Below, one piece after another: positions 19,628 through 21,476 of a stretch of 64,000 bases of DNA. The stretch is from a virus. Its lineage: Duplodnaviria; Heunggongvirae; Uroviricota; Caudoviricetes. Location: the IMG/VR virus record IMGVR_UViG_3300037484_000445, positions 259,863 through 323,862 of that record. One strand, written 5' to 3'. The notes beneath the pieces are model-generated. The model searched no databases and was not told the DNA's origin. It was given only the letters and a program-made list of their open reading frames with translations. The position numbers were made by a program, and so were the translations under genes. The first letter of the stretch is position 1. Each line of letters begins with the position of its first letter.

Positions 19628-19663
19628 GGCATAGTACCTCAGGTGATTTAGGGGTACTATGCC
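19628..19663. promoter_or_regulatory. hairpin GGCATAGTACC-14nt-GGTACTATGCC with AGGTGA in the loop, 3 nt before the macro-gene ATG
   Basis: Perfect 11-bp inverted repeat; the loop carries a perfect anti-SD complement. Confidence 0.4.
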
Positions 19664-19666
19664 GTC

Positions 19667-20125
19667 ATGATAACGTATACCAAAGGGGACGCTACGAAGC
19701 CCAAGAGCTACGGGGTCAAGATCATAGCCCACGTCGTAAACCGTCAAGGAGGTTGGGGGAAAGGGTTCGTTTTGGCCCTCTCACACCGTTGGGAAGAACC
19801 AGAAAGGGCCTACCGTTCTTGGGCCAAGAGTAAAGATGGAACCTTCACGCTCGGACACGTACAGCTCGTCAAAGTTGAGCCTGATATGTACGTGGCCAAC
19901 ATGGTGGCCCAAGACGGATACCGAAGCACGTCCAACCAAGTGCCCCTACGATACTATGCCCTAGAGGATTGCCTCAAAGAACTACGCCTTCAGGCCAATC
20001 TTCTCAAAGCCACCGTACACATGCCTCGAATAGGGTCAGGACTTGGTGGAGCTGAATGGCCAAAGGTCGAAGCCCTTATCAAGCAAGAACTTCCGGACGT
20101 AGAGGTAACCATCTACGATTTGTAA
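19667..20125 (+). CDS. macro domain protein (ADP-ribose / Appr-1''-p processing family)
   Basis: GDATKP..IIAHVVNRQGGWGKGFVLAL and RIGSGLGGAEW resemble macro or Poa1-like domains. Confidence 0.6.
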   Translation: MITYTKGDATKPKSYGVKIIAHVVNRQGGWGKGFVLALSHRWEEPERAYRSWAKSKDGTFTLGHVQLVKVEPDMYVANMVAQDGYRSTSNQVPLRYYALEDCLKELRLQANLLKATVHMPRIGSGLGGAEWPKVEALIKQELPDVEVTIYDL

Positions 20126-20130
20126 CCCTT

Positions 20131-20544
20131 ATGCCTGTTCTCATTTCTGTAGACAAGCTTGTCGAGCTATGCAACCCTTTTCCGTCCACTCCTTGGGGTG
20201 TGCAGATAACCCTGGACGACATACGAAAGGCCGTAGAACTACGGCAGTTCAAAGACGCCCCAATAGCCAGGCAACTGCTTTTCCGACAGTCGCCGATGGC
20301 TCGCATGCTCCACATCCAGAGAATCGCCTATCTGGCTACTTTCGGCTGGGATGACCCTATCGAGATCGACGTGGGTGTACCATCGTTGGGATACTGTCCG
20401 GACTGGATCATAGTGGATGGGAATCACCGGTATGTGTCCGCTATCTGCCGTCAAGACAAGCTAATTGCGGCTGAGATAGGCGGTGACATAGGCTTTGCCG
20501 AAGATCTACTAGATGTGAAAATCCCTGAGGTGGATCCTTCATGA
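20131..20544 (+). CDS. ParB-like nuclease domain protein
   Basis: DGNHRYVSAI resembles the ParB/Srx DGHHR motif; ATG at 20131. Confidence 0.5.
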   Translation: MPVLISVDKLVELCNPFPSTPWGVQITLDDIRKAVELRQFKDAPIARQLLFRQSPMARMLHIQRIAYLATFGWDDPIEIDVGVPSLGYCPDWIIVDGNHRYVSAICRQDKLIAAEIGGDIGFAEDLLDVKIPEVDPS

Positions 20545-21476
20545 AAGAGAGCGTACGCCCCAAAGGTACGGTTGAAGTAACTTGCTCGTATTCTGGGTGC
20601 AACTGGTCTTGGTGGTTGGATCCCCTGGACCCGTTACTACCTGATGGCCCCTTCGATTGCGGACGAAACCATAAGGCTGAGCAATTCGTCGACCAGCAAC
20701 TATCGAGACTTCAACTCGAGACAGGTATTCACTGGGGAACTCGCCGCGGTGAGGCTTATGGCAAGTCCAAGGAGCCTAGCCCAGAAAAAGGAGTGGCCTT
20801 GGTCCACAACCGCACACGAACCTCGCAAGGGGTTCTTCGGTGGAACCAGCTGCACGCGTTGACCCATGTGAGCAACATGGTTCGATACATCCAATGGGGT
20901 ACGACAGCTGTTCAAGAAAACTTCGGCGATATAGAGTGCTCACCAAGTTGTTGGGAAGTGACCGAGGACACTATCACTTGGGCCAACTACAAGTTGAATG
21001 GGTTGACTCGAAAATTTACGATGGCGCCGTGCTCTCGTTGCCAAAGGAATGTGGCTGTTGATTTACATGACCCGCACATCAATCTAAACAACAGTGCCCT
21101 CAGTATAGGCGGGTATGGTAAAGGTGTGATAGCCAAGCCCCCTTGGTGGGGTAAGGTCGAGATTTTCTGTGAAAACGGCCTGTGGGGGAGAGATCCTCAA
21201 CCCTGTAAGCTGATCTACGGTTTCACCGTCCGAGAGTTCGAGGCCCTAACTGGAACCCACTGGACGATGTTTACGCCCAAGGCTGCCCTCTTCTATGAGG
21301 CTACTCTAAACCGCTACGGTGTCATCAAGTGCCATGAGGACTACTTTCGTTCGAGTGAAGTCCTTGGCCGCAATCTATTCCTTGGGGATCTAGCAAGTGT
21401 TAGAAATTACTTGGGAACTATGGTAGGTAAGGAAGACCTCATCTACCAAGAAGTCTCCAAGCATGTCCAACAATGA
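20541..21476 (+). CDS. Cys-rich hypothetical protein (311 aa)
   Basis: ATGA overlap with the ParB-like gene; multiple CxxC pairs. Confidence 0.55.
   Translation: MKESVRPKGTVEVTCSYSGCNWSWWLDPLDPLLPDGPFDCGRNHKAEQFVDQQLSRLQLETGIHWGTRRGEAYGKSKEPSPEKGVALVHNRTRTSQGVLRWNQLHALTHVSNMVRYIQWGTTAVQENFGDIECSPSCWEVTEDTITWANYKLNGLTRKFTMAPCSRCQRNVAVDLHDPHINLNNSALSIGGYGKGVIAKPPWWGKVEIFCENGLWGRDPQPCKLIYGFTVREFEALTGTHWTMFTPKAALFYEATLNRYGVIKCHEDYFRSSEVLGRNLFLGDLASVRNYLGTMVGKEDLIYQEVSKHVQQ

Follow-up and report, generated by a model that had tools for sequence, protein, structure and literature searches.

This analysis concerns a gene cluster, at positions 19628–21476, in a 64,000-nucleotide stretch of phage DNA (the window; Caudoviricetes, IMG/VR record IMGVR_UViG_3300037484_000445), which forms part of the genome of a very large uncultivated phage. 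An earlier note on this DNA had described the cluster as an operon of three genes, encoding a macrodomain, a ParB-like domain and a Cys-rich protein, behind a hairpin with AGGTGA in its loop. The cluster sits in one co-directional unit on the + strand, which extends from 19068 to 21914 and is longer than the three genes of that note. From the promoter onwards the unit is arranged in the order given below, where L001, L002, L010, L011, L012, L013 and L015 denote the relatives that share flanks with the window; loci carrying homologues of the second and third genes are noted separately.

18981..19010, + strand: probable promoter, CCTTAACT-N15-CGTATTA, the 'class-2' phage promoter motif (22.9 bits by a position weight matrix (PWM) built from 8 window sites)
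19068..19604, + strand: upstream 178-aa gene, first of the unit (open reading frame (ORF); 52–99% identity in L001, L002, L011, L012, L013 and L015)
19628..19663, + strand: hairpin, 13-bp stem and 10-nt loop with AGGTGA (folding)
19667..20125, + strand: gene 1, predicted macrodomain ADP-ribosyl hydrolase, 152 aa (ORF, PDB homology)
20131..20544, + strand: gene 2, single-domain ParB-CTPase/sulfiredoxin-fold protein, 137 aa
20541..21476, + strand: gene 3, 311 aa, unrecognised fold, invariant Cys/His
21463..21666, + strand: orf4, 67-aa gene, conserved downstream flank of the slot (63–97% identity in all relatives)
21663..21914, + strand: orf5, 83-aa gene, last of the + strand unit (conserved in L001, L010, L011, L012 and L013)

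The motif at 18981–19010 probably serves as the promoter of the whole unit. A PWM scan found no other + strand class-2 site of at least 11 bits from 19011 to 21914, and orthologous genes of the relatives keep the motif. Overlaps within the unit are limited to 4 nt between genes 2 and 3, 14 nt between gene 3 and orf4, and 4 nt between orf4 and orf5. The macro gene had been thought to be fused by overlap to gene 2; instead, the macro stop codon is followed by a gap of 5 nt before the start of gene 2. The longer ORF at 20056–20544 is judged to be a mechanical extension because gene 2 begins at or near MPVLI (20131) in all 33 aligned sequences, as well as in the 137-aa public gene call P0001 of a 99%-identical protein. 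No match was found for the 178-aa gene in Pfam or PHROG, or for orf4 in Pfam.

Across the relatives the flanks are syntenic, with the 178-aa gene upstream and the 67-aa gene downstream, ending at ThiF, while the slot between them varies as follows (macro identity is that to the window protein).

Window and L001, macro identity 100% and 91%: macro, gene 2 and gene 3
L010: contig begins inside gene 2, then gene 3; the macro region is outside the contig
L002, macro identity 69%: macro and gene 3, without gene 2
L012, macro identity 84%: macro alone
L015, macro identity 78%: macro alone
L013, macro identity 76%: macro and a decayed remnant of about 170 bp of the 3' end of gene 3
L011, macro identity 48%, a different gene: opposite-strand SCO6735-type macro, 254-aa HNH/EndoVII endonuclease and gene-3 C-terminal remnants

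The region is probably best described as a variable accessory-gene slot that always holds a macrodomain gene, within one transcription unit of a giant phage. Selection appears to keep 'a macro gene' in the slot, with genes 2 and 3 as dispensable passengers that are gained and lost independently of it; in L012 and L015, orf4 lies directly 3' of the macro gene. Genes 1–3 are not a conserved module, and the trio is an accident of the variable slot. The earlier description of them as an uncharacterised functional combination is not sustained, as neither gene order nor co-occurrence is kept across the relatives, and 0 of the 35 other IMG/VR loci with a gene 2 homologue have a macro or gene-3 gene within 5 kb. 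This negative result warns against reading tight phage gene packing as functional linkage.

Exchange within the slot is seen at L011. This is a near-identical strain with flanks 98–100% identical to those of the window (178-aa gene 98%, orf5 100%). In L011:2058-3309, which corresponds to window 19605–21462, the hairpin, the macro gene, gene 2 and most of gene 3 have been exchanged, and C-terminal remnants of gene 3 persist at L011:3334-3478. The endonuclease that accompanies the different macro gene matches PHROG at E=6e-23, and the arrangement looks like a homing-endonuclease-associated cassette exchange. At L001:13466-14902 (approximately window 23506–24190), a gene for a 478-aa TnpB/Cas12f1-like protein has been inserted in a contig that is 99% related to the window; here the window has an 84-aa gene and most of a 171-aa gene, and L001 keeps 29 codons of the latter. 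The neighbourhood of the slot is a hotspot for mobile genes, of which the TnpB insertion is another sign. The longest contig of a cluster that includes an identical macro protein measures 451,925 bp, and relatives sit on a 449-kb and a 293-kb contig.

Gene 1 had been proposed to encode a macrodomain, and sequence searches of the PDB agree. With phmmer, residues 2–152 are covered by matches to BT1257 (2fg1, E=7e-48; 2afc, E=9e-48) and to SCO6735 (5e3b, E=3e-43). The ALC1 macrodomain is matched at E=4e-13, TARG1 at about 1e-3, phrog_335 at E=6e-31 and the PADLOC DarG profile at E=1.9e-14, and the NCBIfam model antitoxin_DarG scores 41.4 bits against a cut-off of 250. The check proposed originally, a match to Pfam PF01661, missed its threshold, at 15.2 bits versus a cut-off of 22 (E=0.02). 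That profile under-detects the subclass, since most of the 120 homologues among the matches listed have no precomputed PF01661 match. Both the macrodomain call and the ParB-fold call for gene 2, discussed below, are correct, though not by the Pfam tests that the earlier note had put forward. The 5e3b alignment places residues H22, N25, K32, Q82 and R86 of the phage protein opposite H24, N27, K34, Q85 and K89 of SCO6735. Because of this homology, and because Q82 and other functional residues of SCO6735 are kept, the protein is classified by sequence as a member of the SCO6735/BT1257 subclass within the ALC1-like class.

SCO6735 has been shown to strip DarT-made ADP-ribose off thymidine in DNA and to rescue cells from DarT, and it is also active on Glu/Asp-linked protein ADP-ribose (PMC9411070). 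Its Gln85 stands at the place of the catalytic lysine of TARG1 (K84) and DarG (K80), in a study which also describes the roles of the individual residues (PMC9411070). The phage protein shares with SCO6735 and BT1257 full-length homology, equal size and a stand-alone single-domain organisation. It likewise has Gln (Q82, equivalent to Q85) in place of the TARG1/DarG catalytic Lys, and the equivalents of H24, N27 and K34 are kept, with R86 as a conservative replacement of SCO6735 K89. It differs from them in being encoded by a giant phage, whereas theirs are bacterial proteins (Streptomyces coelicolor and Bacteroides thetaiotaomicron, respectively). An SOS-type promoter has been described for SCO6735, while the phage macro gene is not under one.

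Homology of this kind suggests that the macro protein most likely removes DarT-type ADP-ribose as a form of counter-defence. It would strip ADP-ribose from phage DNA, or from other targets that a host ADP-ribosyltransferase defence (DarT, for example) has modified, and would act as a stand-alone antitoxin mimic, to judge from homology and residue conservation. A precedent exists in AdfM (gp104) of phage phiKZ, a stand-alone phage macrodomain that counters DarTG2 (PMC13309987). Both are stand-alone macrodomains in jumbo phages, and both are proposed to clear DarT-type ADP-ribose off the DNA of the phage (PMC13309987). If this is so, SCO6735-type hydrolases would take their place beside the DarG2-like AdfM as counter-defences of very large phages, and the xenologous macro gene which arrived with a homing endonuclease would clearly exemplify the exchange of genes in an arms race.

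Several points weigh against this interpretation. AdfM is DarG2-like whereas the window protein is SCO6735-like; BLASTP found no detectable similarity between the two. DarG of the DarTG system belongs to the same ALC1-like macrodomain class, but the window protein has Gln at the place of the catalytic Lys and lacks the C-terminal DarT-binding domain. A true DarG antitoxin was rejected, given a length of only 152 aa, the 41.4 of 250 bits, and no adjacent DarT; indeed, no ART-like or DarT neighbour was found among nearby genes (ORFs and Pfam scan). Finally, the same phage encodes KptA, which lends a small measure of probability to a role for the macro protein in metabolite clean-up.

According to this alternative, the macro protein is an ADP-ribose-1''-phosphate phosphatase which clears the by-product of the phage KptA/Tpt1 RNA 2'-phosphotransferase in tRNA repair. 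KptA/Tpt1 is present in the window as had been stated (12870–13397, − strand, Pfam E=1.3e-44), and it adjoins a CCA-adding enzyme. There is partial similarity to yeast Poa1p-type structures (6lfu, E=7e-11), an RNA ligase gene lies near the macro gene in L013, and cooperation of KptA, 2H and Macro proteins in phages has been discussed (PMC9503650). Nevertheless this role is unlikely. The similarity to the Poa1p-type Appr-1''-p phosphatase has its best stretch over residues 2–67 only, and SCO6735/BT1257 are closer by about 30 orders of magnitude in E-value; the Poa1p type shares the broad class of the phage protein but falls in another subclass. The macro subclass points to macromolecular de-ADP-ribosylation and not to the Appr>p pathway, with which the earlier note had linked the two genes. 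KptA belongs to a separate transcription unit, on the opposite strand and at a distance of 6.3 kb, and no 2H cyclic phosphodiesterase was found among the genes scanned. Moreover, xenologous replacement of the macro gene alongside a homing endonuclease resembles arms-race turnover and not housekeeping. In the window KptA/Tpt1, a CxxCxxCC protein and a CCA-adding enzyme with an HD domain stand together in an RNA-repair-like set (12870–15334, − strand), and the RNA ligase (PF09414) near the slot in L013 lies at L013:1979-2608.

The hairpin upstream of the macro gene was described accurately in the earlier note: it spans 19628–19663, has AGGTGA in its loop and ends 3 nt before the ATG. Its arms, 19628–19640 (GGCATAGTACCTC) and 19651–19663 (GGGGTACTATGCC), form 12 Watson-Crick pairs and 1 G-U pair around a 10-nt loop at 19641–19650 (AGGTGATTTA), and the stem is followed by GTC and then by the ATG at 19667. 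It is located in a 62-nt intergenic gap and starts 24 nt past the upstream stop codon. In isolation the hairpin folds at -20.9 kcal/mol, and in its 101-nt context z=-3.3 versus shuffles. The window contains 7 hairpins this strong, whereas 30 composition-preserving shuffles gave 0.8 on average, so the class is enriched. The Boltzmann folding ensemble predicts that the loop AGGUGA (probability unpaired 0.74–1.0) and the AUG (>0.9) are both accessible, while the purine tract AGGGG, 12 nt from the AUG, is fully paired in the 3' arm. The hairpin has no match in Rfam. A repeated element was considered and rejected, the arm motif not being enriched in the window; exact palindromes elsewhere in IMG/VR are only ordinary A/T-flanked terminators in unrelated AT-rich phages.

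Conservation of the arms, the check suggested for the hairpin, gave a mixed outcome. The hairpin is identical in L001. In L012, both arms (GGCATAGTACC and GTACTATGCC, 21 nt) are unchanged, whereas the coding DNA is 80% identical, third codon positions are 59% identical and the surrounding spacer has diverged; the arms are therefore under constraint. The loop of L012 has a 9-nt deletion, and its AGGTG aligns with the stem AGGGG of the window, so that display of AGGTGA in the loop is not the conserved feature. The hairpin is absent from L013, L015 and L002, where the gene gaps are 132, 3 and 8 nt, respectively, and from L011, where the cassette has been replaced. A search for intermediate relatives via the upstream gene gave none in IMG/VR and one near-identical contig in metagenomes. 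Only three sequences (window, L001 and L012) carry the hairpin, and because its arms show no substitutions, no covariation is available to show that its role lies in RNA and not in DNA. The element is real and subject to purifying selection in its sub-lineage, and is lineage-specific.

The most likely role of the hairpin, and the weakest step in the proposed scheme, is that within the polycistronic RNA it would tune expression of the macro gene or the stability of the transcript. This would occur by pairing of the proximal AGGGG tract and occupation of the 30S landing zone. Hairpins at start sites are known in phage T4, where those of genes e, soc and 49 are inhibitory and those of genes 25 and 38 form split ribosome binding sites (RBS) (PMC3014915). 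As in T4, the window has a stable stem at a phage start site which pairs a purine-rich tract, and, like the window hairpin, the T4 gene 25 structure is lineage-restricted (PMC3014915). Two differences are apparent: the stem at T4 gene e holds a promoter and that of the window holds none, and the Shine-Dalgarno (SD)-like AGGUGA of the window lies in the loop and not 5' of the stem.

It has also to be considered that the hairpin acts on the transcript, as a terminator, attenuator or 3'-end/processing element which separates the 178-aa gene from expression of the macro gene. Its position 24 nt past the upstream stop codon is consistent with this, as is its place among the 7 strongest hairpins of the window, others of which stand at gene ends (32633–32671 and 55373–55407). 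However, no T-run follows the stem (GTCATGATAACG), while two clear terminators of the window have one, and the hairpin is not listed by a simple terminator scan. Full termination would also leave the macro gene without a recognisable promoter, as the class-2 PWM finds no internal promoter directly upstream of it. A transcript-level role of this kind is, on balance, doubtful. An intrinsic terminator in the strict sense was rejected: the stem is present, but the tail GTCATGATAA has no U-tract. So was the 3' arm GTACTA as a class-2 -10 box, which scores 2.6 bits (GGTACTA, no -35 box) against 16–24 bits at 14 real sites.

The two strongest hairpins of the window, at 32633–32671 (-29.3 kcal/mol) and 55373–55407 (-28.1 kcal/mol), each stand at a gene end with a T-run after the stem, and are probably genuine intrinsic terminators of this genome. 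Three further strong hairpins, at 8213–8243, 13303–13336 (− strand) and 46311–46342 (-18 to -22 kcal/mol), have a common GGG-nCTAAC-CCC apex, and at least one of them lies inside the KptA ORF.

Structure-dependent translation, the function which had originally been suggested for the hairpin, would have it present the loop SD AGGUGA for use of the macro AUG. This is quite unlikely. The predicted accessibility of loop and AUG with the nearer purine tract paired, the constraint on both arms in L012, and the well-documented effects of RNA structure on initiation, in either direction, at T4 genes e, soc, 49, 25 and 38 (PMC3014915) all speak for such a device. Conservation does not back it, as in L012 the arms are kept but the AGGTGA loop is not, the 9-nt deletion placing AGGTG opposite the stem AGGGG. 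The linear spacing from SD to AUG is 20 nt, and the orthologous macro gene of three relatives does without the hairpin, with gaps of 3–8 nt or of 132 nt. An SD-like 4-mer of any kind stands at -16 to -7 in only about 40% of window genes, and in 13 of these it is GGTG from a promoter-like motif; the want of covariation also tells against this device. A split RBS of the T4 gene 38 type, using GGTGA at 19619–19623, 5' of the stem, was rejected, the sequence being GGCGA in L001 and GGCAG in L012. Less probable again, and very unlikely, are two more elaborate ideas: that the hairpin is a structure-dependent switch (by a loop SD or a sequestered tract) which would set the time of macro protein synthesis from a counter-defence gene, or that genes 2 and 3 would be auxiliaries which retarget or regulate ADP-ribose removal in a new anti-ADP-ribosylation module of one lineage.

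Gene 2 encodes a single domain of the ParB-CTPase/sulfiredoxin fold. Its family comprises about 50 homologues; in 33 aligned sequences W22, H61, A66, D80, G82, P84 and D96-G-N-H-R100 are invariant, and the block PIEIDVGVPS is present. A helix (98–106) follows a strand (94–96), which places the DGNHR (GxxR) motif at the N-terminus of the helix. DGNHR is taken to be structurally equivalent to the GxxR phosphate-binding motif of sulfiredoxin (Srx) and ParB. The earlier assignment as a ParB/Srx-like protein with DGNHR thus stands as regards fold and motif, but the profile check with PF02195 (ParBc) gave no match at E<=1 for gene 2 or any of the 33 family members. A search of the family profile against the PDB found no ParB, and for both gene 2 and gene 3 the Pfam, NCBIfam, PADLOC, PHROG and PDB sequence/profile searches were all without match. 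Gene 2 defines a family of the ParB-CTPase fold which is missed by current Pfam profiles and should be useful for the annotation of giant phages.

A canonical partition ParB/KorB was rejected for gene 2, which has one domain of 137 aa, neither the helix-turn-helix (HTH) nor the dimerisation domain that distinguishes ParB/KorB, and no ParA-like neighbour. The sulfiredoxin motif is GCHR, with a catalytic Cys. A sulfiredoxin was rejected as well: gene 2 differs in having an invariant Asn, Asn98, where this Cys stands. Short single-domain proteins of the ParB-CTPase fold have previously been noted in phages (PMC12704722). Gene 2 differs from these, and from sulfiredoxin, in carrying some 60 additional N-terminal residues that include an invariant Trp. 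Given its GxxR nucleotide-binding motif, the protein presumably acts as an NTP-binding switch or a phosphotransferase. Homologues occur at 35 IMG/VR loci, many of them on contigs of 250–540 kb, and also in the Caulobacter phages CcrColossus and CcrPW. No neighbour is shared by the family across 39 loci, and neighbours track phage lineage only. The unrelated contig L018 is the only case outside the window lineage, among about 40 loci, in which gene 2 and a macro gene co-occur: at L018:1005-3282, a homologue of gene 2 (47% identity) is separated by 1.35 kb and five small ORFs from a YmdB/MacroD-type macro gene downstream of it on the same strand. A loose connection of the two kinds of gene is a weak, unexplained lead.

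Gene 3 has ten homologues in a set of 5.8 billion proteins and about 25 full-length representatives among 1.84 billion. C15, C20, C40 and H44, together with C164, C167, C210 and C222 (7 Cys and 1 His), are invariant in 11 sequences, which suggests that the protein carries two putative zinc sites. It had been called a multi-CxxC protein, but there is only one CxxC (C164/C167), beside a conserved CX4C (C15/C20) and a non-conserved CX3C. An AF2 model (pLDDT 85) has no match in the PDB or BFVD. The first 45 residues or so read LRPKGTVEV-C-x4-C-WW-LDPLDP-LP-GPF-C-x3-H. This N-terminal module of about 45 aa (20541–20675, residues 4–44), which is covered by no Pfam family, is also found as stand-alone proteins of 50–130 aa (P0208-P0299) and at the ends of unrelated proteins.

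A new three-component system in which the macrodomain, the ParB/Srx-fold protein and the Cys-rich protein cooperate, for example with an NTP-dependent partner that would target or regulate the hydrolase, is highly improbable and appears largely refuted by synteny. In its favour, the three genes share one strand and are tightly packed (5-nt gap, 4-nt overlap), the same trio occurs in L001, genes 2 and 3 stand at the cut end of L010, and L018 has a macro gene of a different class near a gene 2 homologue. Against it, the trio has been found in a single shallow lineage only, gene 2 is missing from L002 and both genes 2 and 3 from L012 and L015, L013 and L011 hold only decayed gene-3 remnants, the distant gene 3 homologues of L003-L005 sit after an unrelated 121-aa Cys-rich gene, and the 35 further gene 2 loci have neither partner within 5 kb.

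The class-2 motif which precedes the unit, cCTTAA[GC][TC]-N15-17-CGTA[CT]T[AG], occurs in at least 14 copies in the window. Nearly always the start codon of a gene, an ATG, follows after 5–7 nt, which implies that the mRNAs are leaderless or nearly so. Sites include the following.

+ strand: 10069–10100, 18981–19010, 35188–35218, 42824–42853
− strand: 15606–15636, 18941–18971, 22369–22399, 39067–39096, 42472–42502, 47481–47510, 59897–59927, 60625–60655

The motif is kept at an orthologous 110-aa gene in L012, L013, L015 and L002, where the spacer varies. Its CGTA -10 element resembles those of ECF-sigma promoters. A phage sigma factor gene with regions 2 and 4 (10106–10669) itself carries the motif. 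A second upstream motif, GGTGTATA(TAC), occurs in 17 copies with its TATA at about -12 to -7 from the start codon; examples are 2851(−), 9407(−), 31136(+), 34576(−), 38056(+), 50675(−), 53559(−) and 58178(−). Several copies lie in short palindromes between divergent genes, and the motif resembles an extended -10 promoter that would give rise to leaderless transcripts.

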